The notes beneath the pieces were generated by a model. It was not told the DNA's origin. It worked only from the letters and a program-made list of their open reading frames with translations, and made no database searches. This document shows positions 4,547 to 33,595 of a stretch of 64,000 nucleotides of DNA, one piece after another. The stretch comes from Thermoplasmata archaeon (GTDB lineage: Archaea; Thermoplasmatota; Thermoplasmata; Lutacidiplasmatales; UBA184): positions 5,986 through 69,985 of the forward strand of contig JAGWLG010000012.1 of the NCBI GenBank assembly GCA_028864975.1, in the 5' to 3' direction. The position numbers and the translations under genes are program-made. Position 1 is the first letter of the stretch; every line of letters begins with the position of its first letter.

Positions 4547-4572
4547 CAGACAGTGCGCCGATTTTTCCCGTC

Positions 4573-9748: not shown

Positions 9749-9758
9749 GCGCCCGACC

Positions 9759-10028: not shown

Positions 10029-10107
10029 GTTTTGCGGGCCGCTCGTCCCATTGGAGGGTGGCGGGGGGGGCGGAGGACAACAAGGAGGAGGAGGAGGCTG
10101 GACGGCA

Positions 10108-10638: not shown

Positions 10639-10670
10639 GCGTACCCCGCGGGGAAGACCGAGCTGCGCCC

Positions 10671-10679
10671 TTGAAATAG
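10671..10679 (+). promoter_or_regulatory. TATA-like box upstream of the DUF835 gene
   Basis: ttgaaatag is centred about 27 bp upstream of the GTG start at 10702. A near-identical ttgaatag sits at the same distance before the giant gene (19751). Confidence 0.4.
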
Positions 10680-10701
10680 GCCTTCGGGGCTACGCGACCC
10701 C

Positions 10702-11628: not shown

Positions 11629-11654
11629 TCGGCGCGTCCCCTTGGACTCGTCCT

Positions 11655-12824: not shown

Positions 12825-12880
12825 CCGAACGGAAAGCCCAAGGGGCGAGTTGAGGCTTTGCTGGAGGGCCTCGAGGAAGT

Positions 12881-14022: not shown

Positions 14023-14050
14023 CGAAGGGCCGAGGGGCCGCGCGGCATTA

Positions 14051-14060
14051 CCTTAAAGAG
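14051..14060. promoter_or_regulatory. A/T-rich box in the divergent 74-bp spacer (possible bidirectional TATA element)
   Basis: ccttaaagag lies about 30 bp from the minus-strand start at 14022 and about 40 bp from the plus-strand ATG at 14097. Confidence 0.3.
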
Positions 14061-14096
14061 CCCTGCGACGCTCCGCCATGCGAAGGGCTCTCTTAG

Positions 14097-15293: not shown

Positions 15294-15318
15294 ACAGCGC
15301 CTCCGAGGGCCGGCGCGT

Positions 15319-16215
15319 TCAGCCGGACCGTGAGATCGCGATCGAAGCGTACCCGACGACCTGGTCCATCGGCTCCGCGTCCCCGCTGTGCCCTTTCGCC
15401 AGAAGCTCGGCCTTGGCATGGGACCCCTGCAAGGCACAGAGAAGCGCGGTGGTCGGAGCGATCCCGCACATCGAGATGTCCTCCTGCACGACGCGATCAT
15501 AGAGTGCCCTAGGGTCCATCCGCAGGATCGGCTCGAGAGCCCGGTCGTCCTGTCGGCGACAGACCTCGGGGGAGACGTAGTGAGAAAAGTCGGTCGACGC
15601 GAGCCACAGGACGTCCCGGTCGCCCACGACCTTCCGCAGGTGCGCGCCCAGCTCGGCGAGGAGGTCGAAGTGGGTGAACGTAACCTGCAAGGCGATCATT
15701 CGGAAACCTCCCGTGGGATAGACCGTCTGCAGGAACGGCAGTTCCACCTCGATCGAGTGCTCTCGCAGGTGGGCATCGGCGTCGAGATCCACGGGACCGC
15801 GGCCGATGGCCCCTGCGAGGTCCCGGTCCGTCGGGACCACACCCAGAGGAGTGCTCCACTCCTCGTCCGAGACCGAGAAGAGCGAGCCCCTCCCATGGTG
15901 GTTCACGCCCAAGAGGAGGACCGTGCTCGGGACCGGCTCCTTGGCGAGCCGAGAGAAGAGATGCGCGGCGATGGGCCCAGAATAGATGTAGCCGGCATGA
16001 GGCACGATGCCCGCGAGGGTACGACGAGGGCCCGTGCTCCCCGGAGCGGGGACAGGGAGCCGACCGGGACCTCGCTTCCCCGAGAAGCACTCCTCCAATG
16101 ACGCGCGGAGCGAGCGTGCGTCGCGCGGGTAGAATCCTCCGGCCACCGCAGGGACACGGACCCGTGAGGGGCGCGTGGGTCGGACGTCGGCGGCGGCGTC
16201 CTTGAGGTCGCTCAT
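15319..16215 (-). CDS. MEMO1-family protein (AmmeMemoRadiSam system protein B)
   Basis: 298 aa: PAVAGGFYP..IVPHAGYIYSG..LLGVNHHG..EHSIEVELPFLQ..STDFSHY. This is the characteristic Memo/UPF0103 motif series. Confidence 0.85.
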   Translation of the reverse strand: MSDLKDAAADVRPTRPSRVRVPAVAGGFYPRDARSLRASLEECFSGKRGPGRLPVPAPGSTGPRRTLAGIVPHAGYIYSGPIAAHLFSRLAKEPVPSTVLLLGVNHHGRGSLFSVSDEEWSTPLGVVPTDRDLAGAIGRGPVDLDADAHLREHSIEVELPFLQTVYPTGGFRMIALQVTFTHFDLLAELGAHLRKVVGDRDVLWLASTDFSHYVSPEVCRRQDDRALEPILRMDPRALYDRVVQEDISMCGIAPTTALLCALQGSHAKAELLAKGHSGDAEPMDQVVGYASIAISRSG

Positions 16216-16227
16216 GTCCCCTAGCTC

Positions 16228-16647
16228 CTACGCTCGAGAGAGCAACCCATGGACCTCTTTCCCTTCCTCGTCCGAAATGCCCCGCCGCTGTCGGGGGAAG
16301 GTCGGCTGGTCCTCGTACCGTGGGATCACATGGAAGTGCAGATGGAAGACGATCTGTCCGGCGAGGGCCCCCTGGTTGACGCCAACATTGTAGTGACGGC
16401 TCAGCCGCTCGACCCGACGGCAGACCTCGGAGAGGGTGCTCAAGAGAGGCGTATACTGCTCGCGCGGGAGCTCCGTCAAGCGGTCGACGTGGCCTTTGGG
16501 GACGACGAGGGTATGCCCCCGGCTCAGCGGGAACTTGTCGAGGAAGGCGATCGTGCCCTCATCCTCGTAAACGATCCGTGCCGGGGCCTCGTGACGTGCG
16601 ATGGAACAGAAGATGCAGGGTCCTGCCGGGGAGGCTTCCGGAGGCAT
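16228..16647 (-). CDS. HIT-family nucleotide hydrolase/transferase
   Basis: This is the 139-aa C-terminal part of ORF 16228..16929 (MPPEASPAGPCIFCSIARHE..). The histidine triad reads VFHLHFHVIPR. It ends 12 bp upstream of the MEMO gene on the same strand. Confidence 0.88.
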   Translation of the reverse strand: MPPEASPAGPCIFCSIARHEAPARIVYEDEGTIAFLDKFPLSRGHTLVVPKGHVDRLTELPREQYTPLLSTLSEVCRRVERLSRHYNVGVNQGALAGQIVFHLHFHVIPRYEDQPTFPRQRRGISDEEGKEVHGLLSRA

Positions 16648-16768
16648 CGGAAGCTCTGGACGCGGCTTTCCTGAAAGAGCCTTCCCTTCTGGCGAGAGGT
16701 CGCGGGTCCAAAGCTCGCCCACGCAAGGGGACGGACACAGCCTTATCTTCGATAGGACGGATGATACG

Positions 16769-19306: not shown

Positions 19307-19750
19307 CGCTCCCGTGAAATCGGGTGCCGGTTCCAGTCTTGCCAATATCCGCGCACAGGGCGCAAGACGCCCGAGGAAGAGCCCACCTTTCCTGGTCCCA
19401 CCGTCGGGGAGAAGGCACGACGCAATTGCCCCCTTGGCTTGTGTAGCAGTTGAGGAGAACGCCCCCCCTACGACACGCATCATCGACGTATCGACGCGAA
19501 CACCCCCCTGGAACTCGTGGGAGCCCGGGCGCTACGCGTCCGGTACGTGGGGCTTTTTCGTGTCCCACGGGATGGTCCCGACTACCATCCTGGCGGCTGC
19601 TTCCCCGGGGGAGGGAGGGGAGGAGGAAGGAGTGCGGAGAATGGTCGGGAAGAAGGCCTGCCCTTCGGGGGGGCCGGGACCTGGTCGAGGGTCTCTGCTT
19701 CGGAAGGCGCCGAACCGACTCCCGGGAGGTCGATGGGCTCTCCACTAGAC

Positions 19751-19758
19751 TTGAATAG
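19751..19758 (+). promoter_or_regulatory. TATA-like box upstream of the giant surface-protein gene
   Basis: ttgaatag is centred about 25 bp upstream of the ATG at 19779, which is leaderless geometry. Confidence 0.4.
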
Positions 19759-19778
19759 ACGGACCGAAATGGGTTCGC

Positions 19779-22700
19779 ATGTCAAAGACCCCGACACGGC
19801 AGTCTGACCTAGCGAACCCCGTCGTCCACCTAGTCAAGGTTCGAGGAACGAGCTCGCTGTCGCGACGATCGGGTAGCATCGGGGATCGTGCCGGACTCAT
19901 CGGGATATTGCTTCTATTGGGGCTGCTGGTCGCACCGACTACGGCGTTCACGACCACGGGGGCCTTGCTGGCGAAGCTGCCCTCCGCGGAGGCGCCCCCT
20001 CCGGGGACGGTCCAGGGCGTGGCAAGCCTCTCGCTCTCGGCTCTTGGTAACTTCCCGGCCCCGCCCCTTGGCTCCGGGCCTTCGGCCCGGCTCCCCGGCG
20101 TGATTGACGGCCCCGGGGGCGATCTGGGCGCGCCCCTCGGCCTTCCGCCTTCCGCGTCGGTCTCTGCCGGGACTCCCCCAACCACGGCATCCCGGGCCCC
20201 CTCGTCGGGAGCCTCCACTCTGCCTCCGCCCCCCTCTTCCTCAGTCTCTTCCCCCTCCACCTTCTCCTCATCCTCCGCGGCGGGCGCCGCGGAGCTTGCG
20301 CAGGCGAGCGCCTCCCTCGGTCAAGGCGGAGGACCGGCGCAGGGCCATGCCATGTCGTGTGCGGCGTCGGCAGCGGGGTCCTTCGAGTGCGATGCGAAGG
20401 CTGACGCATCTCCGGATCTAGGATTGGGGACCCAGAGCACCACGTGGACCGAAATGGGTACGCCGGGAATGAGGGACGCTGCCTCCATGGTCTATGACCC
20501 GGCGGACGGCACGGTGGTCCTCTTCGGGGGGTACTTCAGCGGTCTCACCCAGGCGGACACCTGGGAGTACCACGGCGGCGTTTGGTATCCGGTGGACTCT
20601 CCAATCTCTCCGCCGGCCCGCTACGCGGCGGCGATGGTCTACGACATCCCCGCCGGCTACGTATTGCTCTTCGGGGGCCAAGGGGCTGGGACTTCAGGGT
20701 CCCTCCAGGACACATGGGAGTTTTCCGGAGGGACCTGGGTGCAACTCACCTCGACCTCATCGCCGGGGACACGGTATGGCGCCACGATGACGTACGACGC
20801 GGCGGACGGATACGTAGTGCTGTTCGGGGGGTTTGGGTGCTCCACGGGCTCGGGCTGCGTGGCGAGCCTCCTCCAAGACACGTGGCAGTTCTCGGGGGGG
20901 GCCTGGACCCAGCTCACTCCGACCACGTCGCCGGGAACCCGGTATGACGCCTCGATGACCTACGACACTGCGGACGGGTACGTGGTGCTGTTCGGGGGGC
21001 TTGGGTGCTCCACGGGCTCGGGCTGCGCGGCGAACGAGATCCAGGACACCTGGAAGTTCACGGGAACCACCTGGACCCAGCTCTCCATCCTCGCACTTCC
21101 GGGAGCCCGGAATGGCGCCTCGATGACCTACGACGGGGCGGACGGGTACGTGGTGCTGTTTGGCGGGTATGGGTGTTTCACGGGGTCAAGCTGCGGGTTG
21201 CATTGGCTCCAGGAAACGTGGAAGCTCATGGGGACCACCTGGACCCTGCTCACTCCCGCGGCCTCGCCGGGAATCCGGGAGGGGGCCACGATGACGTACG
21301 ACGTGACGGACGGGTACGTGGTGCTCTTCGGTGGCCACGGGCCCGGGTCCGCAGGGGGCCTCCAGGACACCTGGAAGTTCTCCGGAGGGACTTGGGCGCA
21401 ACTGGCTCCGACCACGTCGCCGGGAACCCGGACTGGCGCGACGATGACGTTCGACGTGAGGGACGGGTACGTGGTTCTCTTCGGAGGGTTTGGGTGCTCC
21501 ACGGGCTCGGGCTGCACGGTGGACTACCTCCAGGACACGTGGAAGTTCACGGGGACGACCTGGACTCAGCTCTCTCCTACCACGTCGCCCGGAACCCGGC
21601 TTGCGGCCTCGATGGTGTACGACTCGGCGGATAGGTATGTGGCGCTGTTCGGGGGGTATGGGTGCTCCACGGGCTCGGGCTGCGCGGTGGGCTACCTCCA
21701 GGACACGTGGAAGTTCACGGGGACGACTTGGACCCAGCTCACACCGACCACCTCGCCGGGGACCAGGGAATACGCCTCGATGACCTACGACGCGGCTGAC
21801 GGGTATGTGGTGCTGTTCGGCGGATATGGGTGCTACACGGGCTCGAGCTGCACGGTGGACTACCTCCAGGACACGTGGCAGTTCACGGGGACGACCTGGA
21901 GTCAGTTCGCCCCGACCACGTCGCCGGGAACCCGGTATGACGCCTCGATGACCTACGACACTGCGGACGGGTATGTGATGCTGTTCGGGGGGTTCGGGTG
22001 CTCCACGGCCTGCAACTGGCTCCAGGATACCTGGAGCTTTGGGATTCCGCTGACGGACGCTACGCCTTCGGCGTCGCCCAGCTCCCTGGACGTCGGCCAG
22101 GCCTTGCTCCTCACGTCGTCCGCCACCGGCGGGGGCCAGGGCGCCTCTCACGAGTTCGGTTGGTGGGGGCTACCCCCAGGATGCTCGACCGCAGTGCTGA
22201 CCGTGAGCGTTTCCTGCACGCCTTCCAAGGCCGGGACCTACTACGTGGGCACGGTCGTCTCGGAGTCGAACGGTATACCTCTGGCGACGGGACCGACCAC
22301 CACGGTTACGGTCTATCCGGACCCGAGCGCGACCGCGTCCGGGTCGGCCTCCTCGCGCGACGCAGGCCAGACCGTGACCCTGACCGGGCTGACCTCCGGA
22401 GGGCTCGGCCCGTTCTCAGGCATCGTCTGGAACGGCCTTCCCACGGCAAGCAGCTGCGCCGCCGCCGGGAGCCTCACCTGCGCCATCACGCTCTCGTCCT
22501 CAGGGGTGGGACAATGGACGATCACCGTCTCCGCCACGGATGCGAACGGCTTCACGGCCACCTCGATGGGCGTGGCCCTCACGGTCGACCCAGCGTTGTG
22601 CGCCAGCCCTTGCGGGATCTCGGGCGGGACCTCGCTCGATGTGGGGCAAACCGCGACCGTCCAGGCCTCCGTGAACGGAGGGACAGGGACCTACTCGTAC

Positions 22701-25700
22701 GCCTGGTCCGCCCTGTCCGGGGCGGGGTGCCCGACGACCTCGGCGTCGACGGTCGATTGCACGCCCACCGCGACGGGATCGTTCACCGTGGCGTTCGTGG
22801 CGACGGACACGAATGGGGCCACGACCGCCGCCTTAGGGGTCGTTCTGACCGTCTCGGCGGACCCCACCATCACCGCTCCAACCGCTTCGAGGGCGACCCT
22901 GGACGTGGGACAGGCCACGACGCTGACCACCACGGACGCGGGAGGGAGCGGGACCCTGGTGGTCTCGTGGTCCGGGTTGCCGACGGGGTGCCTCAGCTCG
23001 AACACGCTGTCGTTCAGCTGCTCCCCCACGGCGGTCGGGACGTTCACGGTCTACGCCAATGTCCAGGACACGCACCTGTACAACGCCACTTCGGGGCCGC
23101 TGACCGTCGTGGTGTCGCCCAGGCTCAATCCGGGGGGTTCCTTCGCGAGCCCGGCTTCGTTGGACCTTGGCCAGGCTACGACGTTCGTGACCAATGTCAA
23201 TGGCGGTACCGGTAGCTACTCCTACGGTTGGATGGCGCTCCCTCCAGGGTGCGCGGCCGCCGATACCGGCACGCTCGTCTGTACGCCAACCGCGACCGGG
23301 TCCTTCCTCGTCACAGTTTCCGTCGTGGACTCGAACAACAATCTTGTGTCCCCGGCTGCCATCGCGCTCACGGTGGGCCCCGACCCTGTGGCGGGGAGCC
23401 TCGTCGCCTCCTTGCGGGGCCTTCCTCAGCTCGGGTCGGCAAGCGCTCCGCTCACCCTGGGATCGACCCCCTCTTGGGTCCTCTACGACCCCGGGAACGG
23501 TATGGTCTACGTGGGGCAAGGGAACTGCTGCGGCGCGGGGAACACGGTCTGGGTGGTGAACCCCTCGACAGGAACGCTGGTGAAGACCATCACGACGGGC
23601 AACCTCCCCATCTCCTTGGCGTACGACAGCGCTCGGGGCGAGGTCTTCGTCGCCGAGTACGGGAACGCCCAGGTGCAGGTGATCGACGACTCGACCAACG
23701 CGCTCGTGGCCACCATCCCGATGCCGGACGAACCGCTCAGCCTCGGATACGACAGCTGGAACGGCGACGTCTACGTGGCGCTCTATGCGACGAACCGAGT
23801 GGCTGTCATCGATGGCGCCACCGATTCGATCGTCTCGCTCATCGGCGTGGGGTCGGGGCCCAACAGCGCGGCCTTCGACCCAGCGACCGGGGACGTCTGG
23901 GTCGGCGACCAGAACGGTGCCGCCGTGACCATCATCAACGGTGCCACCAACACCGTGGCGGGGACGGTGACCCTGGCGGCCGGTTCGGTCCCGGTGTTCC
24001 TGGTCTACGACCCGGCCAACGGCGACATGTACGTGCCCACCGGGACCACGCAGTCCATCGACGTGATCGATGCGACGTCGGACGCGATCGTCGACACCGT
24101 CGCCACGACGTTCAACCCCGAAGAGAGCGCGCTCGACACGGCGAACGGTTACCTCTACGTGGCGGACATCAGCGCGTCGGCGAACGAACTCCAGGCCCTG
24201 GACACGCGGACCAACACCCTCGTGGGGACCGTGGGGCTGGGGACGACGGCCTACGGGGTCGCCTACGACAGCTCCAACGGAAGATTGTACGGGAGCGGCT
24301 TCGGGAACGGGGACCTCTTCACGGTCCGCACGCTCTCCTCCGTCTCCCTCCCGAGCTCCATGAGCGCCGACGTCGGGCAGTCGGTCCTCCTCTCGGCCTC
24401 CTTGACGGGCCAGGGGAGCGGTGGGGACCGGGTGTCCCTCTCCGTCTCCCCCGCCGCGGGGTTTACCTGCATCGCCGACCCCTACGGGTACGCGAACCTT
24501 AGTGCCGGATGTCTCGCCGAGACCCCTGGCTCGTATCAGCTATACTTCCAGCTGACGGACTCGAACGGATTCACCGTCTCGACAGGGACCCTGACGCTCG
24601 TGGTCGATCCCGCGCTGGGAGGAGCCAGCGTCTCCGTCTCCCGTCTCGCCCTCGACGTGGGACAGACGACGGCCCTTTCGGCCTCCGTGAGCGGGGGCGC
24701 GGGCAGCTACGCGTACGCTTGGTCGACCCTGCCGACCGGATGCTCGGTGGGCGACGTCGGCGCCTTCAGCTGCGTGCCCTCGGGCGCGGGGTCGTTCGCG
24801 GTGGCCCTCATCGTTACGGATGGGAACGGGGCTTCGACCTCCGCTGGGACGACCTTGTCGGTCTCCCTCGACCCCACGATCTCGCCACCCACCGGGACCC
24901 TGACCCGTCTGGATGTGGGGTCCTCGACGGTCCTGGCTGCGACCGCTACGCCCGGTAGCGGTGGGGACGTTTACGCCTGGAGCGGGCTTCCGACCCCGTG
25001 CCTCTCTTCCAACGCGCTCTCCATCGTCTGCGCTCCCAGCGCGTCGGGCGAGGGGACGTTCGACGTGACGGTCAGCGTCGTCGATTCGAACGGCTGGAAC
25101 GTCACCTCCGGCCCCCTGACCATCGAGGTCGACCCCCCACTGGGGATCTCCTCGTTCACAGAATCCCGCCCCGCCCTTGACGTGGGGCAGACCGTGGTCT
25201 TCGCCGTGAGCCCGACCGGCGGCTCCGGGGTCTACACCTACACGTGGGGAGCCATCCCCGCTGGATGCGCGCGGGTCGACGCGGCCACGCTCACTTGTGT
25301 TCCCACCGGGAGCGGTAGCACCACGGTGTCGGTCTCCGTGGGCGACACGAACGGAGCCTCGCTCCCGTCGGCTGGGCTCGCGGTCGTGGTCAGCGCGGAC
25401 CCCGCGGTCTCCTCGCCGGGGGCGAGCACGAGCTCGCTCGACATGGGCCAGTCCACGAGCCTCTCGACCGTGGTCTCGCCGGGGAGCGGCACGGATGTCC
25501 TCTCCTGGGCGGGCCTCCCTGCGGGCTGCCTGAGCTCGAACGCGAACCCGGTCTCGTGCGCGCCTTCGGCCTCCGGGACCTTCACCGTCACAGTCGCTGT
25601 CCGGGACTCGAACGGGATGAACGTGAGCTCGGGCCCCTTGACGCTCGTCGTCTCCCCCGCGCTCTCCGCGGTTGCCTTGACCGCCTCTCCGGGCGCGCTC

Positions 25701-28700
25701 GACGTGGGGCAGAGCTTGACGTTCTCGGCCTCGGTCTCCGGTGGCTCCGGGGTCTACGTCTGGTCCTGGGCGACCCTCCCGACGGGGTGCGCGGGCGCGA
25801 ACGCTGCCACGCTCACCTGCTCGCCAACGGCCGCGGGCTCTTACAGCGCCCAGGCGACGGCGACGGACTCCAATGGGGCGTCCTCGAGCCACAGCGCGGC
25901 CATCGTGGTGTCCGCGGCGGTCACGGTGGGCTCCATCTCCGCGACACGCTGGGACCTGGATGTGAGCCAGAGCTCGACGCTCACGGCCACGGTCGCGGGC
26001 GGAAGCCCCTCCTTCGCCTACGCCTGGGCGGGCCTCCCTGCCGGGTGCCTGAGCTCGAACGCGCTCTCGCTGTCCTGCTCCCCCACCGCGAGCGGGACGT
26101 TCGCCCTCACGTTCTCGGCTCGGGACTCGAACGGGATGAACGTGAGCTCGACCACGATGGCCATGGTGGTGTCCCCAGCGCTGGGGACCCCCTCGATAAC
26201 GGCCTCCACCCCGAACCTGGACGTGGGACAGACCGTTTCGTTCCTCGCCGCCGAGTCGGGAGGGACCGGCAGCTACAGCTACTCGTGGACCTATAATGGG
26301 ATCCGGGCGGACCTGGTTGGTTGCACGGGGCAGGCCACCGCGAGCCTCACCTGCACGCCCACGAGCTCGGGCGTTCCCAATATCGTGGTCACCGTCTCGG
26401 ACAGCAACGCGGCCCCCCCCCAGACCCGGTCGACGACCGTGACGGTCTCGGCGGACCCGACGGTCCAGCCGATCACGGGGAGCCGGACGACGCTCGACCT
26501 CGGACAGTCGACCTTGCTCTCGACCACCTCCGCCCAGGGTAGTGGTGGCCCGACCTACGCCTGGGCCGGCCTCCCCGCTGGGTGCCTGAGCTCGAACGCT
26601 CTCTCGATCACCTGCGCTCCCGCGGGGGCCGGCACGTTTAGCGTGACGGTCTCCGTGCGCGACTCCAATGGGGTGAACGTGAGCTCGATCCCCCTGACGT
26701 TGATCGTCTCTCCGGCGATGGGAAGCGCAGCCCTCGCGGCCGCGCCATCTGCCCTCGACGTAGGCGAGACGACCACGCTGTCTTCCTCGGCCTCGGGCGG
26801 GACAGGGGTCTACGTTTACGCCTACTCGGGCCTGCCCACGGGATGCTCCTCGGCGAACAGCGCGACGCTCGCCTGCTCCCCCTCGGCCGCGGGGACCTTC
26901 CCCTCGGTCGCGCTCACGGTCACCGACGGGAACGGTGCGACGGCCACGGCCATGATTCCGATCGCCGTCTCGGCGGCTCCCGTTGCGGGGACGCCCGCGG
27001 CCTCCAAGCCCTCCCTGGACGTGGGTCAGACCACCTCGATCAGCGCCCTGGCCTCCGGAGGGAGCGGCGGCGACGTCTACTCCTGGAGCGGTCTCCCCAC
27101 CGGGTGCCTGAGCCAGAACCTGCTCTCCTTGACCTGCACCCCCACGGTCGCGGGCACCTTCAGCGTGCGCCTCTCGGTGCTGGACTCGAACCGGATGAAC
27201 GTCACCTCGGGAACGCTCACCCTAGCGATCTCCCCCGCTCTCGCGGGCGCCTTGCTCACCGCGAGCCGTAGCCTCCTCGACGTAGGCCAGACGACCCTCT
27301 TCGCGGCTTCGGCTTCGGGCGGTGCGGGAGGCGACACGTTCGCCTGGTCAGGGCTGCCCAGCGGTTGCTCGGGGGGCAGCTCGTCCTCTGTAACCTGTGT
27401 CCCGGCTGCCAGCGGACCTTTCACCGTGAGCATCGTGGCGACGGACGCGAACGGGGCTACCGCCTCCGCGAACGTGGCCCTCACGGTCTCCAGCGACCCG
27501 TCGGTGAGCGTCCCCTCGTCCTCGAGGAGCTCGCTCGACGTGGGACAGAGCACGAGCCTCTCCTCCGTCGCCACGCCAGGGAGCGGCACGCCGGTGTACG
27601 CCTGGTCGGGGCTGCCCACGGGCTGCCTCAGCGCGAACGCGCTCACGCTCAGCTGCGCCCCGACGGGGGCCGGGACCTTCGTGGTACGGGTCACGGTCCA
27701 GGACTCGAACGGGATGAACGTCAGTTCGGGGACGCTGACCCTCCTGGTCTCCACGGCGCTAGGGACCCCCTCGCTCTCGGCCTCCACCGCGACGTTGGAC
27801 GTGGGGCAGAGCGTCACCTTCACGGCGACCGAGGCGGGCGGCAGTGGGACCTACACCTTCACGTGGACGTGGGCCGGGAACCCGGCCTCGTCCGAAGGGT
27901 GCACGGGGGGGAACGCGGCCACCATCGTCTGCACCCCCACCTTCTCCCAGTCCCCGAGCGTCGTGGTCTCGGTCTCCGACAGCAACGGCATGGGCGGGCT
28001 CGTGGCCTCCACGTCGGTCGTCGTGTCGGCGGACCCCACGGTGACCTCCCCAGGCGCAACCCGCTTGGCCCTCGACATCGGCCAGTCGACGGTCCTCTCC
28101 GCGACCGCCACCACGGGGAGCGGTGGACCCACCTACGCCTGGTCGGGTCTGCCGACGGGCTGCCTGAGCGCGAACGCCCTCACGGTCACCTGCTCCCCGA
28201 CGGCCGTCGGCACCTACAGCGTGTCGATCTCGGTCCGGGACTCGAACGGGATGAACGTGAGCTCGACTACGTTGACCTTGGTGGTCTCCCCCGCACTGGG
28301 AGCCGTCGGGCTCTCCGCCTCGTCCTACAACTTGGACGTGGGGCAGTCCACGACGTTCTCGGTCTCGGTGAGCGGCGGCACGGGCAGCTACACCTACACG
28401 TGGGGATCCCTTCCCTCCGGGTGCGTGGGGTCGTCCACGCCTACGCTCCTCTGCGCTCCGTCGGGCGCCGGCAGTACCACCGTGGTCGTGTCCGTCGCGG
28501 ACACGAACGGGGTGCTCTCTGGCTCGGGGCCCGTGACGGTGATAGTCCAGGCGCCCCCCAGTGTGACCTCGCTCGGTGCGACCCGACTCGACCTTGACGT
28601 AGGCCAGTCGACGACCCTCACCGCCGCGGCCACCGCGGGCAGTGGCGGCCCCGTGTACGCGTGGTCGGGACTTCCGACCGGGTGTCTCAGTTCCAATGCG

Positions 28701-31700
28701 CTCTCGGTGACCTGCTCGCCCACCGCCCCGGGGACCTTCACGGCGGTCTTCTCGGTGCGCGACTCCAATCGCATGAACGTGAGCTCGGGCGCCCTCACCC
28801 TCGTCGTCTCCCCGGCGTTCGGGACGGCGACCCTGAGCGGAAGTCGTCTCGCCCTGGACGCGGGTCAAACGGTGCTCCTCACGACCTCGGTTTCGGGAGG
28901 ATCGGGCGGCGACTCCTATGCCTGGAGCTCGCTCCCGACCGGATGTGGCGGGGCGAACTCGGCGACGCTATCCTGCGTCCCCAGCGGCGCCGGCACCCCC
29001 ACCGTCTCCGTGACGGTCACGGACAGCAATGGGGCCACCGCCTCGGCCACACTCCCGCTGACCGTCTCCTCCGCCCCGACCATCTCCCTCCCGACCGCCT
29101 CGAGGACTGCGCTGGACGTGGGCCAATCCACGACCCTCAGCGCGACCGCGACCTCGGGAAGCGGGAGCCCGGTCTACGCTTGGTCGGGCCTCCCCGCTGG
29201 CTGCTTGAGCTCGAACGCCCTGTCGGTGGCCTGCACGCCCTCGGGGTCAGGGACCTTCAGCGTCGCGGTGTCGGTCGTGGACTCGAACGGGATGAACGTG
29301 AGTTCCGGCCCCCTGACCCTGGCGGTCTCGCCGGCGTTGGGGTCGGCGACCCTCTCGGCGAGCCGGAGCGCGCTGGACGTCGGGCAGTTTACCGCGCTCT
29401 CGGGCGCCGTCAGCGGCGGAACGGGGAGCTACACTTACTCCTGGGGCTCCCTCCCCTCGGGTTGCTCGGGCTCGAACGCGGTCGCGATCGTGTGCTCCCC
29501 CACCGCGGCGGGGACGTTCTCGGTGGCTCTCACGATCACGGACACCAACGGGGCCAGCGCGACCCCCGCGCCGGTGTCGCTCGCGGTCTCCGCAGCCCCC
29601 TCGGTGGGGTCGCTCGGTGCGACCCGCCTCGACCTGGACGTGGGACAGCTGACCACGCTCGCAGGGACGGCGACCGGCGGCAGCGGCGGGGACGCCTATG
29701 CCTGGGTCGGGCTCCCCACGGGGTGCTTGAGTTCCAACTCGCCCTCGGTGGCCTGTTCGCCCACCGCCGCCGGGACCTTCTCCATCGCGCTCTCGGTCAT
29801 CGATTCGAACGGGATGAACGTGAGCTCGCCGTCGCTGCTTCTCTCGGTCTCTCCCGCGCTCGCGGCCGCGGCGCTCAGCGCTGGGCGGAGCGCTCTGGAC
29901 GTGGGACAGGCGACGACCCTCTCCGCTTCCGCCTCGGGCGGGTCGGGCGGCCTCTCCTACTCCTGGTCGGGGCTGCCCACCGGCTGCAGCAGCGGGGGGC
30001 GGGCTTCCTTCGCCTGCGCTCCGACCTCCCCCGGGACGTCCTCGGTGTCCGTCGTGATCACGGACTCGAACGGAGCGAGCGTCTCGGCCTCGACGACGCT
30101 CACGGTCTCGTCCGCGCCCTGGGCCGGGTCGCCTACGGCGAGCCCGAGCGCTCTCGATGTCGGGCAGACGACCGCCCTTGCCGCCACCGCGGGGGCGGGG
30201 AGCGGTTCGCCGACCTACGCCTGGGGGGGCCTCCCCGCGGGGTGCTTGTCGGTGAGCTCGCTCATCCTCACGTGCTCCCCCATGAGTTGGGGGTCGTTCA
30301 CGGTGGTGCTGAGCGTTGTGGACTCGAACGGGATGAACGTCTCCTCCGCGCCACTTCTGCTCCCCATCTCTCCGGCTCTCGCCGGGGCGACCCTCTCGGC
30401 TTCCCCCGGCGCGCTGGACGTGGGGCAGTCGACTGCCCTCTCCTTCTCCGTCTTCGGCGGCTCCGGCGGCTTGACCTACGCGTGGTCCGGTCTTCCCGCG
30501 GGCTGCGCGGGAGGGAACTCGGCCACGCTCCTCTGCTCGCCCACCGCTAGCGGCACCGGCCTTGCGACGGTCCGTGCGACCGACGCCAACGGCGCCTCGG
30601 TCTCGGCGAGCGTCTCGCTCACCGTGTCGGCGGCCCTCTCCGTGGCTGCGCCCTCCGCCTCCCCCTCGGCGGCAGACGCGCAGCAGGCCGTGACGCTCTC
30701 CGCCCTGGCTTCCGGAGGGGCGGGCACCCTGGTCTACGCATGGTGGGGCCTTCCTTCCGGATGCCTCTCCTCGAACCTGGCGACCCTCCCCTGCACGCCC
30801 GCGGCCCCGGGGAGGTTCATGGTGGGCTACAGCGTACTGGACGCGAACGGAGAGAACGTGAGCTCCCCCGCGCTCTCCTTCAGCGTGTCGGCGGCGCTCT
30901 CGACCCCTGTCCTGGCGGCCTCCTTAACGGCGCTGGACCTGGGCGAGGGCACGACGATCGCCGCGACGGTGGCGGGGGGGTCCTCCCCCCTCGCCTATGC
31001 CTGGGCCGGGCTCCCGACCGGGTGCACAGGGTCCGACACGCCCACCTTGGCCTGCGCGCCCTCCCTGACCGGGACCTTCTCGGTGTCGCTCAGGGTCTCT
31101 GACGCGAACGGGGGCACGGCCACCTCGGCAGCTCTGACGCTCACCGTTTCGGCCGCTCCCACGGTGGGGATTCCGATGGCGACGCTGACGTCGCTGGACC
31201 TGGGGCAGACGACCTCGCTCACGGTGCCCTCGACCCCGGGGAGCGGCGGGCTCGTGCTGAACTGGTCGGGACTCCCGACGGGCTGCCCGGCCTCGGGGCT
31301 CCCCTCCTGCACGCCGACCGCGACCGGCACGTTCTCGATTTGGGTCTCGGCCAAGGACTCGAACGGGGTCACCGTCGTGGGCGCCCCTCTCGTCCTCACC
31401 GTTGACGGGGCCCTCGCGGCGGTCACGCTGACCGCGAGCTCAAAGGACGTGGACGCGGGGTCAGAGGTCACGCTGACAGCCGAAGTCTCGGGCGGGAGCG
31501 GGGGTTACGCCTACTCGTGGTCCGCGCTTCCCACGGGCTGCGCGGGGGCGGACGTCGCCACGTTGCTCTGCTCCCCCTCGGCCGCCGGGTCGTTCGCGGC
31601 CGCGGTCCAGGTCTCGGACACGAACGGGGCCACCTCCTCGGCCTCGGTCTCGATCACGGTGAACGCCCCGCTCTCTGTCGCGCTGTCGGATAGCCCCACC

Positions 31701-32267
31701 TCCGCCTCGAACGGGGCGACGCTCACCTTCACGGCGTCCGCGGCGGGCGGGAGTTCGCCGACTGTTTACGCCTGGTCGCTCAACGGGACGGCGCAGGCGG
31801 GCGCGACGGGGTCGACCTTCACCATCGCGGGAGCTCACGCCGGGACCTACTCGGTGTCGGTCGCGGTCTCGGACGCGACCGGCTCGCGCGCGATCGCCCC
31901 CACGGTATCGGTCACGGTGAGCCCGCCGGTCCCCCCAGCGTCTACGCCCCCGGCGCCGACACTCTCCCCCTCGTCCTTCGCGTCGGAGTCCAACCTGCTG
32001 GTGGGGCTCCTCGCAATCCTGGTCGCGCTCGCGGTGGCGATCCTGCTGATGCAGGCCCTCGGCCGGCGCTCTCGGCCCCCGGCCTCCGGGGTCGCGGGGA
32101 AGGCCAGACCGCCGCGGCCGCGCGCCCGTCCTGCGGTGCTCGAGACTCCCCCGGCCTCCCCCGAAGGGGTTGCGACCCCCCCGCCCCCCTCCCCCGTCGC
32201 GGGCGGCGAGGCGGAGCCTGTCTCCGGGACCGGCCCCGAGACCTACTCCGAGGATGGAGAAGCCTAG
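19779..32267 (+). CDS. Giant (4162 aa) membrane-anchored mosaic surface protein: Kelch propeller(s), Ig-like repeat arrays and a YVTN beta-propeller
   Basis: A single uninterrupted 12,489-nt ORF. It has an N-terminal hydrophobic segment (LIGILLLLGLLVAPTTAF) and a Pro/Ser/Ala-rich spacer. These are followed by 10 Kelch motifs, 5 Ig-like domains, about 7 YVTN-type propeller repeats and about 29 further Ig-like domains. It ends with a C-terminal TM helix (LLVGLLAILVALAVAILLM) and a basic/Pro-rich tail. All other-frame and antisense ORFs inside it are short, repeat-echo artefacts. Confidence 0.9.
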   Translation: MSKTPTRQSDLANPVVHLVKVRGTSSLSRRSGSIGDRAGLIGILLLLGLLVAPTTAFTTTGALLAKLPSAEAPPPGTVQGVASLSLSALGNFPAPPLGSGPSARLPGVIDGPGGDLGAPLGLPPSASVSAGTPPTTASRAPSSGASTLPPPPSSSVSSPSTFSSSSAAGAAELAQASASLGQGGGPAQGHAMSCAASAAGSFECDAKADASPDLGLGTQSTTWTEMGTPGMRDAASMVYDPADGTVVLFGGYFSGLTQADTWEYHGGVWYPVDSPISPPARYAAAMVYDIPAGYVLLFGGQGAGTSGSLQDTWEFSGGTWVQLTSTSSPGTRYGATMTYDAADGYVVLFGGFGCSTGSGCVASLLQDTWQFSGGAWTQLTPTTSPGTRYDASMTYDTADGYVVLFGGLGCSTGSGCAANEIQDTWKFTGTTWTQLSILALPGARNGASMTYDGADGYVVLFGGYGCFTGSSCGLHWLQETWKLMGTTWTLLTPAASPGIREGATMTYDVTDGYVVLFGGHGPGSAGGLQDTWKFSGGTWAQLAPTTSPGTRTGATMTFDVRDGYVVLFGGFGCSTGSGCTVDYLQDTWKFTGTTWTQLSPTTSPGTRLAASMVYDSADRYVALFGGYGCSTGSGCAVGYLQDTWKFTGTTWTQLTPTTSPGTREYASMTYDAADGYVVLFGGYGCYTGSSCTVDYLQDTWQFTGTTWSQFAPTTSPGTRYDASMTYDTADGYVMLFGGFGCSTACNWLQDTWSFGIPLTDATPSASPSSLDVGQALLLTSSATGGGQGASHEFGWWGLPPGCSTAVLTVSVSCTPSKAGTYYVGTVVSESNGIPLATGPTTTVTVYPDPSATASGSASSRDAGQTVTLTGLTSGGLGPFSGIVWNGLPTASSCAAAGSLTCAITLSSSGVGQWTITVSATDANGFTATSMGVALTVDPALCASPCGISGGTSLDVGQTATVQASVNGGTGTYSYAWSALSGAGCPTTSASTVDCTPTATGSFTVAFVATDTNGATTAALGVVLTVSADPTITAPTASRATLDVGQATTLTTTDAGGSGTLVVSWSGLPTGCLSSNTLSFSCSPTAVGTFTVYANVQDTHLYNATSGPLTVVVSPRLNPGGSFASPASLDLGQATTFVTNVNGGTGSYSYGWMALPPGCAAADTGTLVCTPTATGSFLVTVSVVDSNNNLVSPAAIALTVGPDPVAGSLVASLRGLPQLGSASAPLTLGSTPSWVLYDPGNGMVYVGQGNCCGAGNTVWVVNPSTGTLVKTITTGNLPISLAYDSARGEVFVAEYGNAQVQVIDDSTNALVATIPMPDEPLSLGYDSWNGDVYVALYATNRVAVIDGATDSIVSLIGVGSGPNSAAFDPATGDVWVGDQNGAAVTIINGATNTVAGTVTLAAGSVPVFLVYDPANGDMYVPTGTTQSIDVIDATSDAIVDTVATTFNPEESALDTANGYLYVADISASANELQALDTRTNTLVGTVGLGTTAYGVAYDSSNGRLYGSGFGNGDLFTVRTLSSVSLPSSMSADVGQSVLLSASLTGQGSGGDRVSLSVSPAAGFTCIADPYGYANLSAGCLAETPGSYQLYFQLTDSNGFTVSTGTLTLVVDPALGGASVSVSRLALDVGQTTALSASVSGGAGSYAYAWSTLPTGCSVGDVGAFSCVPSGAGSFAVALIVTDGNGASTSAGTTLSVSLDPTISPPTGTLTRLDVGSSTVLAATATPGSGGDVYAWSGLPTPCLSSNALSIVCAPSASGEGTFDVTVSVVDSNGWNVTSGPLTIEVDPPLGISSFTESRPALDVGQTVVFAVSPTGGSGVYTYTWGAIPAGCARVDAATLTCVPTGSGSTTVSVSVGDTNGASLPSAGLAVVVSADPAVSSPGASTSSLDMGQSTSLSTVVSPGSGTDVLSWAGLPAGCLSSNANPVSCAPSASGTFTVTVAVRDSNGMNVSSGPLTLVVSPALSAVALTASPGALDVGQSLTFSASVSGGSGVYVWSWATLPTGCAGANAATLTCSPTAAGSYSAQATATDSNGASSSHSAAIVVSAAVTVGSISATRWDLDVSQSSTLTATVAGGSPSFAYAWAGLPAGCLSSNALSLSCSPTASGTFALTFSARDSNGMNVSSTTMAMVVSPALGTPSITASTPNLDVGQTVSFLAAESGGTGSYSYSWTYNGIRADLVGCTGQATASLTCTPTSSGVPNIVVTVSDSNAAPPQTRSTTVTVSADPTVQPITGSRTTLDLGQSTLLSTTSAQGSGGPTYAWAGLPAGCLSSNALSITCAPAGAGTFSVTVSVRDSNGVNVSSIPLTLIVSPAMGSAALAAAPSALDVGETTTLSSSASGGTGVYVYAYSGLPTGCSSANSATLACSPSAAGTFPSVALTVTDGNGATATAMIPIAVSAAPVAGTPAASKPSLDVGQTTSISALASGGSGGDVYSWSGLPTGCLSQNLLSLTCTPTVAGTFSVRLSVLDSNRMNVTSGTLTLAISPALAGALLTASRSLLDVGQTTLFAASASGGAGGDTFAWSGLPSGCSGGSSSSVTCVPAASGPFTVSIVATDANGATASANVALTVSSDPSVSVPSSSRSSLDVGQSTSLSSVATPGSGTPVYAWSGLPTGCLSANALTLSCAPTGAGTFVVRVTVQDSNGMNVSSGTLTLLVSTALGTPSLSASTATLDVGQSVTFTATEAGGSGTYTFTWTWAGNPASSEGCTGGNAATIVCTPTFSQSPSVVVSVSDSNGMGGLVASTSVVVSADPTVTSPGATRLALDIGQSTVLSATATTGSGGPTYAWSGLPTGCLSANALTVTCSPTAVGTYSVSISVRDSNGMNVSSTTLTLVVSPALGAVGLSASSYNLDVGQSTTFSVSVSGGTGSYTYTWGSLPSGCVGSSTPTLLCAPSGAGSTTVVVSVADTNGVLSGSGPVTVIVQAPPSVTSLGATRLDLDVGQSTTLTAAATAGSGGPVYAWSGLPTGCLSSNALSVTCSPTAPGTFTAVFSVRDSNRMNVSSGALTLVVSPAFGTATLSGSRLALDAGQTVLLTTSVSGGSGGDSYAWSSLPTGCGGANSATLSCVPSGAGTPTVSVTVTDSNGATASATLPLTVSSAPTISLPTASRTALDVGQSTTLSATATSGSGSPVYAWSGLPAGCLSSNALSVACTPSGSGTFSVAVSVVDSNGMNVSSGPLTLAVSPALGSATLSASRSALDVGQFTALSGAVSGGTGSYTYSWGSLPSGCSGSNAVAIVCSPTAAGTFSVALTITDTNGASATPAPVSLAVSAAPSVGSLGATRLDLDVGQLTTLAGTATGGSGGDAYAWVGLPTGCLSSNSPSVACSPTAAGTFSIALSVIDSNGMNVSSPSLLLSVSPALAAAALSAGRSALDVGQATTLSASASGGSGGLSYSWSGLPTGCSSGGRASFACAPTSPGTSSVSVVITDSNGASVSASTTLTVSSAPWAGSPTASPSALDVGQTTALAATAGAGSGSPTYAWGGLPAGCLSVSSLILTCSPMSWGSFTVVLSVVDSNGMNVSSAPLLLPISPALAGATLSASPGALDVGQSTALSFSVFGGSGGLTYAWSGLPAGCAGGNSATLLCSPTASGTGLATVRATDANGASVSASVSLTVSAALSVAAPSASPSAADAQQAVTLSALASGGAGTLVYAWWGLPSGCLSSNLATLPCTPAAPGRFMVGYSVLDANGENVSSPALSFSVSAALSTPVLAASLTALDLGEGTTIAATVAGGSSPLAYAWAGLPTGCTGSDTPTLACAPSLTGTFSVSLRVSDANGGTATSAALTLTVSAAPTVGIPMATLTSLDLGQTTSLTVPSTPGSGGLVLNWSGLPTGCPASGLPSCTPTATGTFSIWVSAKDSNGVTVVGAPLVLTVDGALAAVTLTASSKDVDAGSEVTLTAEVSGGSGGYAYSWSALPTGCAGADVATLLCSPSAAGSFAAAVQVSDTNGATSSASVSITVNAPLSVALSDSPTSASNGATLTFTASAAGGSSPTVYAWSLNGTAQAGATGSTFTIAGAHAGTYSVSVAVSDATGSRAIAPTVSVTVSPPVPPASTPPAPTLSPSSFASESNLLVGLLAILVALAVAILLMQALGRRSRPPASGVAGKARPPRPRARPAVLETPPASPEGVATPPPPSPVAGGEAEPVSGTGPETYSEDGEA
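20440..22040 (+). repeat. Ten tandem Kelch-type blades (about 50-57 aa each) within the giant gene
   Basis: The unit R-x-x-A-(S/T)-M-(T/V)-Y-D-x-x-D-G-Y-V-V-L-F-G-G ... L-Q-D-T-W-x-F-x-G-x-x-W-x-Q-L occurs 10 times (approximate boundaries). Confidence 0.8.
22050..23390 (+). repeat. Ig-like (He_PIG/PKD-like) domain array 1 (5 units)
   Basis: Five units of about 90 aa each begin with an LDVGQ-type motif (SSLDVGQALLL, SRDAGQTVTL, TSLDVGQTATV, ATLDVGQATTL, ASLDLGQATTF). Confidence 0.7.
23450..24335 (+). repeat. YVTN-family beta-propeller repeat region (about 7 blades) embedded between the Ig arrays
   Basis: Units of about 40 aa follow the pattern P-x-x-(L/A)-A-(Y/F)-D-x-x-x-G-x-(V/L)-(Y/W)-V-(A/G)..N-x-V-x-V-I-(D/N)-x-(A/S)-T-(N/D)-x-(V/I)-V. 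Examples are VGSGPNSAAFDPATGDVWVGDQNGAAVTIINGATNTV and LPISLAYDSARGEVFVAEYGNAQVQVIDDSTNALV. Confidence 0.75.
24340..31925 (+). repeat. Ig-like domain array 2: about 29 tandem units with a ~261-bp period, mostly alternating between two sequence types
   Basis: LDVGQ-type codon strings (ctcgacgtgggacag and variants) recur at about 24365, 24651, 24909, 25177, 25437, 25700, 25955, 26217, 26496, 26754, 27015, 27276, 27535, 27795, 28072, 28333, 28592, 28853, 29111, 29372, 29633, 29897, 30155, 30413, 30675, 30935, 31196, 31448 and 31700. Confidence 0.85.
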
Positions 32268-32551: not shown

Positions 32552-33595
32552 TCACTCGGCGGGCAAGGGGAGGGAAGGGTCGGGTCCCTTCGGCGCGCCC
32601 TCGGGGCTCGGAGGGGCACCCTCCGCCCCGTTCCCGTCCGAGGGGTCGGGAGGCGGTGGCGGGATCGCGCTCAAGGAGATGCCGAGGCGCTGAGCGAGCC
32701 GCTCCCGGATCCTGTCCTTGTCGGTGGTCTCGAGACCGAAGTACTCGGCAAAGTGCGAGCTCGTGGTGAGCTCGAGCGTCGAGGCTTTCGGAAGGGCGTG
32801 GATGAAGTTGAGCTCCTTCAGGACTTTCACTTCCGTGTACGCGGCCTCCCCGACCATCCTCGCGAGCACGCTTTGGCGGATGGGCTGGTGGAAAGCGATG
32901 AGCGCGAGGACCCTCAGCGAACGACTGGGGATGTCGACGGGGGTCACCTTGTGGGCGACCTCGAGGTAGTCGGGACGCACCTGGAGCGCCCACGCCTCTC
33001 CCGCACGTCGGACCTCCAGCGAGGTGTTGCGGTTCGCGTAGGCGCGCTGGAGCTTGCGGAGAGCACGCTTGACCGACACGTGGTCGACTTCCCCTCCGAG
33101 CCGTGCGGTGAGGTCATGCACACTCACCGGCTTGCCCGCGGCGAAGAGGACCGACTCTACGCGTAGAGGAAGTTCGGGGGCCACCCCCTTTGGCCGAGGG
33201 GTACGTGCTTCGGCGAGAGCAGGTTCGCCACCGCCTTCGTCGTCCTCGTCGGTGTCCGCTTCGGTGGGGTCGGACTCGGTCTCCTCGTCAGGACTGGGCC
33301 CCGCCCCCGTCGTCTCTTCGGGCCCCGTCGGGGCCTCGGAAGTGGGGAGGGGGGCGGAGCTGGCCGTCGGGGGAGCGACGGCCTCTTGGGGTCCTGGCGA
33401 AGGGGTGGGCGGCGCGAGGGGTTGGGCGGCGGCCTCGGGCGGGGTGGGGGACGCCGGGGCTTCAGGCTCCGGCGCATGGTCGGGGGGAGCTTCTCGAGGG
33501 GGGGAGGAGCGACGAGGGTGGGGCTTCGCGCTCCCGCGCGCGGCCACCGGTCGCTTGCCCTTGGACCGTGTGGGAGATCCCTTCGCCATGGTCAC
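32552..33595 (-). CDS. scpB: Segregation and condensation protein B (kleisin partner) with Pro/Glu-rich N- and C-terminal extensions
   Basis: 347 aa. The core (VESVLFAAGKPVSVHDLTARL..LQRAYANRNTSLEVRRAGEAWALQVRPDY..RSLRVLALIAFHQPIRQSVLARMVG) is the tandem winged-helix ScpB pattern. Its start overlaps the scpA stop (ATGA). Confidence 0.85.
   Translation of the reverse strand: MTMAKGSPTRSKGKRPVAARGSAKPHPRRSSPPREAPPDHAPEPEAPASPTPPEAAAQPLAPPTPSPGPQEAVAPPTASSAPLPTSEAPTGPEETTGAGPSPDEETESDPTEADTDEDDEGGGEPALAEARTPRPKGVAPELPLRVESVLFAAGKPVSVHDLTARLGGEVDHVSVKRALRKLQRAYANRNTSLEVRRAGEAWALQVRPDYLEVAHKVTPVDIPSRSLRVLALIAFHQPIRQSVLARMVGEAAYTEVKVLKELNFIHALPKASTLELTTSSHFAEYFGLETTDKDRIRERLAQRLGISLSAIPPPPPDPSDGNGAEGAPPSPEGAPKGPDPSLPLPAE

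Follow-up and report, generated by a model that had tools for sequence, protein, structure and literature searches.

The 64-kb stretch of DNA analysed here (the window; contig JAGWLG010000012.1 of the Thermoplasmata archaeon assembly GCA_028864975.1) carries, at 19779..32267 on the forward strand, a giant gene for a predicted surface protein of 4162 amino acids (aa). The best explanation, to which we assign a probability of about 60%, is that the gene codes for an exported, C-terminally anchored, adhesin-like binding protein, which comes from a family of propeller-shuffling paralogs and was inserted in this lineage. For the order of domains we write K for Kelch blades, P for immunoglobulin (Ig)-like units of the PKD/He_PIG-like type, Y for the YVTN propeller and TM for a transmembrane helix, and the giant protein then reads K10-P5-Y-P29-TM. 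Starting from the N-terminus, it comprises a hydrophobic segment, a low-complexity spacer, ten Kelch blades, five Ig-like units, a seven-bladed YVTN propeller, 29 further Ig-like units, a single TM helix and a charged, proline-rich tail. This order had been proposed from the letters of the DNA alone (the original prediction), and scans with profile hidden Markov models (HMMs) together with an alignment of the repeats bear it out from the N-terminal segment to the tail.

The giant gene and its assembly

The gene is complete and consists of a single open reading frame (ORF) of 4162 codons followed by a stop, with zero N and zero internal stops. Its 12.5 kb fill about 20% of the window, as had been stated at the outset. 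At about 70% GC, stops are expected at a frequency of about 0.019 per codon, that is about one per 52 codons, and by simple arithmetic the probability of 4162 open codons is about 1e-35. The GC content at third codon positions (GC3) is 0.88, against 0.81-0.90 in the neighbouring genes, and codon use is likewise similar, which rules out a foreign origin by composition. The source is archaeal and Thermoplasmata-like, in agreement with what was first proposed, and we take the ORF to be a real gene, carried by an uncultured euryarchaeon related to the Thermoplasmata. The 64-kb window contains no tRNA and no Rfam feature.

An in-frame stop lies at 19752 and the first start codon after it is the ATG at 19779. 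Reading the sequence directly, we found a TATA-like AT-rich box, TTGAATAG, at 19751..19758 (+), 21-28 nt 5' of this ATG; it is a possible archaeal promoter, and its spacing would fit a leaderless or short-leader mRNA. The long form starting at 19779 is the right one because it includes an N-terminal motif conserved in the family (aa 173-204) and because a paralog of the same genome, P0242, has the same N-terminal layout. Two public calls of the gene are N-terminally short: the one in the metagenome-assembled genome (MAG) GCA_028867515.1 has 3932 aa and begins at M231 (window 20469), inside Kelch blade 1, and the one in GCA_028867375.1 has 4116 aa and begins at the TTG codon 47 (window 19917), inside the hydrophobic segment. 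Because public calls start elsewhere, a look-up of the exact sequence of the giant protein gave no match.

These two MAGs also bear on contiguity. In GCA_028867515.1 (contig JAGWGG010000003.1, 178 kb), an ORF of equal length lies at 9311..21799 and differs from ours by 5 nt (3 aa) and 0 indels. In GCA_028867375.1 (contig JAGWGM010000006.1, 140 kb), which carries the 4116-aa call, the sequence is 99.995% identical to window 22552-43589, with one mismatch. Both assemblies thus carry the giant ORF at an identity of at least 99.96%, PKD5-YVTN junction included. Since the window is identical to neither public MAG, these are three assemblies of one population. As a side observation, 13 of the 34 single-nucleotide polymorphisms between the window and GCA_028867515.1 are clustered at 14807-15008 and 15457-15510, which makes this a local hot spot of variation between strains. 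Nine of them lie inside an unannotated 398-aa ORF (14097-15293, no Pfam match), within 200 bp of each other, and four near the end of the Memo gene, on its 3' side.

An assembly artefact could take the form of a chimera between a Kelch-PKD and a YVTN-PKD gene, or of a collapsed or expanded array. The layout does resemble K-P followed by Y-P-TM, both of them common types of gene; an independent ortholog that shares the junction is missing outside this population; and the Kelch array contains an exact repeat of 62 bp, its copies six blades apart. Against this, two further MAG assemblies give the same sequence through the junction on contigs of different lengths, and the Ig units, with a codon-aligned DNA identity of 54% on average and 70% at the peak, are at most 70% identical. 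In related genomes the two flanks of the gene adjoin each other, so that a chimera needs two compensating misjoins, and because both flanks form one ancestral locus, a two-locus chimera is excluded. The reading frame and GC3 are continuous as well. We regard this explanation as largely refuted already and hardly credible: the giant gene is not an assembly artefact, and the remaining doubt is limited to the copy number at the 62-bp Kelch repeat, the sole spot where a short-read error is conceivable.

Two propellers and a long stalk

The first module is made of ten Kelch blades (aa 221-762; 20439..22064, +), marked by ten LFGG anchors at a spacing of 49-56 aa. Pfam scores are far above the cut-offs (Kelch_4, 94.9 bits with a cut-off of 21.6; Kelch_3, 78 with 22; Beta-prop_ATRN-LZTR1, 80.6 with 50) and the blade motif DGYVVLFGG...QDTW...W is present in all ten blades, which places them in the Kelch-repeat family in the number first counted. 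Seven of the ten blades bear a small Cys-Cys loop of the GCSTGSGC type. An AlphaFold2 model of aa 205-775, built with 43 homologues, predicts regular four-stranded blades (predicted local distance difference test score, pLDDT, 84.2; predicted template modelling score 0.69). Its fold neighbours in the PDB are six-bladed Kelch domains, namely those of KLHDC2, KLHDC3/10, LZTR1 and KLHL12. KLHL12 superimposes with a root-mean-square deviation of 3.0 over 275 columns, and the six-bladed matches have a template modelling score of 0.7 on the target. Counted with the same HMM, the blades of relatives cluster at 6, 11-12 and 15-18, and ten blades occur in 5 of 120. The one tandem array that Tandem Repeats Finder reports within the ORF is that of the Kelch blades, with an identity of about 76%. 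The longest exact repeat of the gene is the 62-bp direct repeat, at 20919-20980 and 21912-21973, its copies 993 nt apart.

The second propeller (aa 1230-1520; 23466..24338, +) is of the seven-bladed YVTN/YncE type. Its seven repeats of about 42 aa, close to the count of about seven made by eye, align with each other, and the region is homologous to solved propellers: the surface layer protein of Methanosarcina mazei (PDB 1L0Q, E=8e-26) and YncE (3VGZ, E=5e-7). The TIGR02276 model scores 23.2 bits, just under its cut-off of 27.85. NCBIfam gives partial matches to YncE and PQQ_ABC_repeats; the YncE model NF052280 reaches 64.1 bits for a cut-off of 400, which makes the module a YVTN-type propeller and not a YncE equivalog. 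Blade 1 contains a vicinal CC.

The names of some Pfam models that match these propellers, "Galactose oxidase, central domain" and "Lactonase, 7-bladed beta-propeller", would suggest an extracellular enzyme, with the Kelch module acting as a galactose oxidase or the YVTN module as a lactonase and the Ig array as a mere tether. We consider this very improbable. The lactonase match has 18.6 bits and is below the cut-off, the Kelch models are generic repeat models, the Pfam and NCBIfam scans contain no catalytic domain family, and the best structural matches are peptide- or protein-binding Kelch domains.

The remainder of the ectodomain is a stalk of 34 Ig-like units of about 87 aa each, which align almost free of indels. 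Five of them precede the YVTN propeller (units 1-5, aa 763-1207; 22065..23399, +; recognized by Pfam and by the alignment of units) and 29 follow it (units 6-34, aa 1523-4050; 24345..31928, +; alignment of units, with an AlphaFold2 model of units 21-22), exactly the split originally described. The Pfam scores are 132.1 bits for PKD (PF00801), 87 for K319L-like_PKD (PF22352) and 48.5 for PKD_4 (PF18911). Only five stretches individually exceed the PKD model; the remaining units are divergent and carry a He_PIG-like LPxGC motif. From unit 7 on, two types of unit, A and B, alternate, which gives a super-repeat of two units and about 174 aa: identity is 53% at even offsets vs 41% at odd offsets. 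Units 21-22 were modelled using the 14 pairs of the protein itself as the alignment, and the prediction is all beta with a pLDDT of 92. Passing the Pfam threshold and having a predicted Ig-like beta-sandwich fold, the units are PKD/Ig-like repeats. Foldseek neighbours of the Ig pair include modules of the adhesin SraP, the S-layer protein SbsB, intimin, the grappling-hook protein GhpA of Aureispira, SiiE and metazoan Ig-type cell adhesion molecules.

The cysteines are distributed with great regularity. All 86 form local pairs (43 in total, none unpaired), the distance being 1-14 residues between partners and at least 39 between neighbouring pairs. Thirty-three pairs belong to the cores of Ig units, one extra pair lies at the end of unit 2, seven are in the Kelch loops, one is in the N-terminal motif and one is the CC of the YVTN propeller. 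The conserved pair is found in 28 of the 29 units after the YVTN propeller and in 33 of the 34 overall, unit 34 being the one without it. Spacing depends on the module: C-x9-C in most Ig units, C-x5-C in the Kelch loops and C-x10-C in the N-terminal motif. This pairing suggests one disulfide staple per module.

Sequons for N-glycosylation (N-x-S/T) are depleted, with 16 observed vs 27.8±4.7 in shuffled sequences, and 13 of the 16 are N[VA][ST]S at the identical position of even-numbered units (unit 4 and units 8-30). They range from aa 1102 to aa 4002 (23082-31829); the Kelch region and the YVTN propeller are free of them, as is everything before aa 1102. Such regularities of cysteines and sequons would be expected of an exported, disulfide-stapled and site-specifically glycosylated ectodomain.

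The two ends of the protein

At the N-terminus, the hydrophobic segment GLIGILLLLGLLVAPTTAF (aa 39-57; 19893..19949, +) comes just after RRSGSIGDR, and homologues, too, are hydrophobic at this position; its predicted role is that of a signal peptide or of a signal anchor. It is followed by a low-complexity Pro/Ser/Ala/Gly spacer (aa 58-170; 19950..20288, +), which has an equivalent in paralog P0242. The existence of this spacer had been predicted with a length of about 150 aa; depending on the end chosen, we find something nearer to 113-160 aa. Next comes the motif conserved in the family, LxxAxxSLxxGxGPA...C-x10-C (aa 173-204; 20295..20390, +), taken from the consensus of the family alignment.

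The opposite end was anticipated correctly as a single TM helix and a charged, Pro-rich tail. The helix (aa 4073-4094; 31995..32060, +) is preceded by a Ser/Thr/Pro linker of 22 aa, and the same element is present in members of the family. The predicted cytoplasmic tail (aa 4095-4162; 32061..32264, +) has 68 aa, with the family consensus RRxRxP. It is basic by the membrane (GRRSRPP...KARPPRPRARP), then Pro-rich and acidic, and it ends with ETYSEDGEA. The tail of P0242, which ends with EEYSEDKE, shares with that of the giant protein an acidic E[TE]YSED motif after the Pro-rich stretch, possibly a conserved signal for sorting or for interactions in the cytoplasm. The protein as a whole is acidic, with a net charge of -122 and 15 lysines. 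The claim that it is a membrane-anchored surface protein is consistent with all these signs: the N-terminal hydrophobic segment, the positive-inside residues after the TM helix, the 43 Cys pairs and the periodic sequon.

An uncleaved N-terminal segment would anchor the protein at both ends, making it a long loop or arch with its propellers near the distal turn or near the membrane. The n-region of 38 aa ahead of the hydrophobic segment and the lack of a clear AxA cleavage motif point in this direction, and the Ser/Pro spacer of about 110-160 aa, conserved in type in P0242, could serve as a tether. Archaeal signal peptides are, however, often atypical, and most type I surface proteins are cleaved; we judge the double anchor to be rather improbable.

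Neither end shows the hallmarks of other large surface proteins. The PGF-CTERM model of NCBIfam has no match at E≤0.01, and the TM helix is followed by a 68-aa tail with no PGF before the helix, which sets the protein apart from the archaeal S-layer glycoproteins anchored by PGF-CTERM and archaeosortase. Pfam and NCBIfam scans contain no RTX/type I secretion or autotransporter domain of giant adhesins, and the genomic context is archaeal.

Family and proposed mosaic origin

The protein is a member of a large family. Of 8000 candidates scored in a search with aa 1-1530, 1260 proteins reached E≤1e-10; the top members had E=0 and the best were 39-54% identical. Many of the 1260 are named "kelch repeat-containing" or "PKD domain-containing" and come from Thermoplasmata or Euryarchaeota archaea; "YVTN family" is a further public name in use for the family. 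With HMMER, aa 480-1620 matched 30,905 of 1.84 billion representatives at E≤1e-10. We mapped the architectures of the relatives with HMMs built from the blades and units of the giant protein itself. Typical Kelch-type relatives have 1000-2150 aa and consist of a signal, K6, K12 or K18, P4-13 and TM. The elements common to them in the family alignment are the N-terminal motif, units of the GLPxGC...C.P type, the TM helix and the RRxRxP tail; the giant protein has all of them, as well as the N-terminal hydrophobic segment, the Ser/Pro spacer and the Kelch array, in the family order and thus belongs to the Kelch-PKD-TM family of Thermoplasmata.

Several relatives are giants too. P0242, the paralog located on another contig of the same MAG, is K12-P20-TM (2742 aa) and P0253 is K12-P21-TM; among those without Kelch blades, P0243 is Y-P35-TM (3898 aa), P0247 is Y-P6-Y-P12-TM, P0291 is P13-Y-P and P0338 is P43-TM (5446 aa). 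More than one kind of propeller occurs in P0342 (Y-K6-P-Y), in P0099 (K5-Y-K6) and in P0259, where N-terminal YVTN blades are followed by five K5/K6 arrays with P2-3 spacers between them. Smaller YVTN+PKD proteins of 600-1000 aa are numerous in Thermoplasmata and Nitrososphaerales. From these mapped sequences, different propellers split by Ig stalks are a recurring design of the family, whose members range from 1000 to 5400 aa.

The novelty first implied for the layout must therefore be divided. The exact order K10-P5-Y-P29-TM is found in this population only, among the top 150 representatives, and it is unique in the data searched. The general plan of head, stalk and anchor is common, and it is generically annotated in public MAGs; the combination of YVTN and PKD is classical, and relatives with several propellers exist (P0247, P0259, P0291, P0342 and P0099). 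The possibility that this architecture was already a common annotated family thus turned out to be half true, for the plan and not for the exact order. No ortholog of the PKD5+YVTN junction was found in GTDB representative genomes or JGI metagenome contigs, where relatives have 28-41% identity. The protein P0241 (3932 aa, with an apparent identity of 62%) was considered as an independent ortholog and rejected: it comes from a MAG of the same population, its YVTN part is 100% identical, and the 62% is an artefact of counting over several stretches.

Some units are telling as to how the mosaic may have arisen. The best match of unit 1 is the unit that directly follows the Kelch blades of a Kelch-type relative; unit 6 clearly pairs best, at 76 vs 47 bits, with the unit just behind the YVTN propeller of a YVTN-type relative; and units 31-34 run colinear with the end of the P0242 stalk. 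An origin of units 1-5 and units 6-34 from different types of protein was considered and dropped: most units match Kelch-type and YVTN-type relatives equally, and only the head-adjacent and terminal units are diagnostic. Because most stalk units match both types equally, the A and B units form a shared pool. The simplest reading would be a recombination among paralogs, in which either a cassette of the YVTN propeller and its first unit entered a Kelch-type gene, or K-P5 was fused to Y-P29-TM.

A bolder idea is that heads on stalks are combinatorial cassettes, swapped via the A/B units, with new permutations landing in housekeeping loci, or else that the Kelch blades close into a non-canonical ring, as two five-bladed propellers or a single ten-bladed one, an arrangement that no solved Kelch protein shows. 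We hold this idea to be possible and rather unlikely. The propeller heads would then travel with their cognate first Ig unit, and the swaps would occur by recombination in the Cys-stapled A/B units.

Insertion between the sedolisin and scpB genes

The giant gene is flanked upstream by the gene of a sedolisin-type (pro-kumamolisin) protease (16601..19306, +), which in related genomes is the direct neighbour of scpB. Downstream lies scpB itself (32552..33589, -), convergent with the giant gene and followed by scpA and smc. In six contigs from about four related lineages, whose ScpB proteins are 60-75% identical, the order SMC-ScpA-ScpB is convergent with sedolisin-HIT-Memo; there, the gap between scpB and the sedolisin gene is 115-270 bp and the giant gene is absent. 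The giant gene is thus a lineage-specific insertion between sedolisin and scpB, and this conserved adjacency of the flanks joins the two other MAG assemblies in supporting a real, contiguous gene. At the flanks of the insertion there is no direct repeat of at least 9 nt that could represent a target-site duplication, and a 10-nt inverted match is at the level of shuffled sequences.

Proposed role

Proteins with these domains are well known at the surface of archaea. Archaeal PKD, Kelch and YVTN proteins have been assigned roles in the surface layer and in cell-cell interaction (PMC5498576, PMC10354927), and a surface protein combining YVTN and PKD counts as classical in archaea (1L0Q; Jing et al. 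2002, Structure 10:1453, which both papers cite). Like the giant protein, the surface layer protein of M. mazei has a seven-bladed YVTN propeller followed directly by PKD, and it is homologous to aa ~1290-1505. The 1L0Q fragment contains one propeller and one PKD domain; by comparison, the giant protein adds a ten-blade Kelch module, 34 Cys-stapled units and a C-terminal TM helix with its tail, and its YVTN propeller is internal and not terminal. The Kelch/PKD proteins of Thermoplasmata (P0012, P0042, P0242 and P0253) have the same plan and belong to the same sequence family, but as a rule they lack a YVTN propeller and combine 6, 12 or 18 blades with 4-21 Ig units. The giant YVTN-PKD proteins of metagenomes (P0243, P0247 and P0291) share with it the types of Ig unit and the anchor, and P0247 and P0291 also embed the YVTN propeller between Ig arrays; they have, in contrast, no Kelch module, and the identity of their YVTN part is about 30-40%. 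The ARMAN archaeon Mia14 has strain-specific surface proteins with PKD domains and Kelch/YVTN beta-propellers, for which cell-cell interaction was proposed (PMC5498576). They use the same vocabulary of domains but fused to CARDB-like modules. Finally, SraP, SiiE, intimin/invasin and GhpA are tandem Ig-like rods that project a binding module and are structural neighbours of the modelled Ig pair. The analogy is one of mechanism only: they have no detectable sequence homology with the giant protein and they rely on type I secretion, type V secretion or sortase, whereas the giant protein would use a Sec signal and a C-terminal TM helix.

A surface binding role is proposed because of the homology to 1L0Q, the likeness of the Ig fold to adhesin rods and the extracellular signatures, and the adhesin, S-layer-like or contact function suggested in the original prediction is a reasonable reading. 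The protein would be exported via its N-terminal hydrophobic signal and would stay anchored through its C-terminal TM helix; the 68-aa tail would lie in the cytoplasm and the remainder outside the cell. From the membrane outwards, one would meet the rod of 29 Ig-like domains, the seven-bladed YVTN propeller, the rod of five domains, the ten-blade Kelch module and the flexible Ser/Pro spacer. Each rod domain would be stapled by its cysteines, and one N-glycan sequon would be offered per two-domain super-repeat. An Ig-like domain spans about 4 nm; at this value, the 29-domain rod would be of the order of 100 nm and the five-domain rod about 20 nm long. The propellers would act as ligand-binding heads and the Ig array as a spacer, with surfaces, polymers or other cells as the targets of this long, adhesin-like tether or receptor; that this filament is bivalent is plausible. 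It would have originated from a Kelch-type member which received a YVTN propeller with its cognate first Ig unit, the whole gene being then inserted between sedolisin and scpB.

A structural component of the envelope, part of an S-layer or a glycocalyx canopy rather than a specific adhesin, is the alternative that we take most seriously, although we doubt it. The best solved YVTN homologue is annotated as a surface layer protein (1L0Q), the Ig pair has the S-layer protein SbsB as one of its fold matches, the family has expanded greatly in these genomes, and archaeal PKD, Kelch and YVTN proteins are treated as surface-layer constituents (PMC5498576). An archaeal S-layer glycoprotein in general forms an abundant, N-glycosylated two-dimensional lattice, and the observation that bears on this is the conserved, periodic sequon. 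A core lattice is harder to reconcile with a gene that every related lineage analysed lacks at the syntenic site, and the many differently built paralogs form a pattern that suits accessory, variable surface proteins better. The protein is without PGF-CTERM or another known S-layer anchor, and a length of 4162 aa with a rod of about 100 nm is atypical for the protomer of a lattice.

Our preference for an anchored, adhesin-like binding protein also has to face some points that weigh against it. Its closest solved homologue goes by the name of surface-layer protein and not of adhesin. The N-terminal segment may or may not be cleaved, and a doubly anchored loop is possible. Ten Kelch blades, for which the model leaves 5+5, 6+4 or one ring as candidates, depart from the family norm of 6, 12 or 18. 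Lastly, the three assemblies represent one population and probably one pipeline, so that the 62-bp Kelch repeat might conceivably hide a systematic error.

Neighbouring genes

Other genes of the window and of related contigs have features of their own. ScpB, in this population and its closest relatives, has 322-377 aa, against about 205-225 aa in most ScpB matches of Thermoplasmata, which cover about half of it; the difference suggests that the N-terminus was extended by about 130 aa in this lineage. Genes of the DUF835 family recur beside or near giant Kelch/YVTN-PKD genes, at 10675-11628 in the window, at 16349-17443 on contig L004 (JAGWGG010000010.1 of MAG GCA_028867515.1), at 19729-20478 on L005 and at 4185-5684 on L002, a recurrence that spans this MAG and related metagenome contigs. 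The pro-kumamolisin gene also recurs near giant genes, at 16601-19306 in the window and at 20856-24134 on L005. Towards the start of the window, 1028-4570 (-) codes for a large predicted secreted protein of 1181 aa, with PKD domains and a weak phosphoesterase match. On the other side, 39614-41998 (+) codes for a predicted secreted protein of 795 aa with a carboxypeptidase-regulatory-like domain, conserved beside smc in relatives. The paralog P0242, on L004, clusters with large surface-type genes (L004 1-2582, 5081-7612 and 17981-21745), which code for a PKD protein longer than 1040 aa, an 843-aa protein of the GH25-PKD-fn3 type and a 1254-aa Big_1 protein. Surface proteins with Ig repeats seem to be a heavy investment of this genome.

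Significance

The building blocks of the giant protein, their combinations at the archaeal surface and the family with head, stalk and anchor are already known or abundant in databases, and no Kelch-type member has been characterised. Particular to this protein are its size, its unique permutation with both propellers, the atypical array of ten blades and the recent insertion into a conserved locus; it reveals neither a new mechanism nor a new class of protein. Should the exchange of head-on-stalk cassettes prove true, these archaea would possess a fast-evolving repertoire of very long receptors, for example for partner cells or episymbionts, or serving as decoys for viruses. Uncultured Thermoplasmata-like archaea devote a striking share of their coding capacity to such proteins, none of which has been characterised. 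Because it is present in three assemblies and has defined ends, 43 putative staples, one glycan site per two-domain repeat and two kinds of propeller, the giant protein is a reasonable template for structural and cryo-electron tomography work on the contact of archaea with surfaces or cells.

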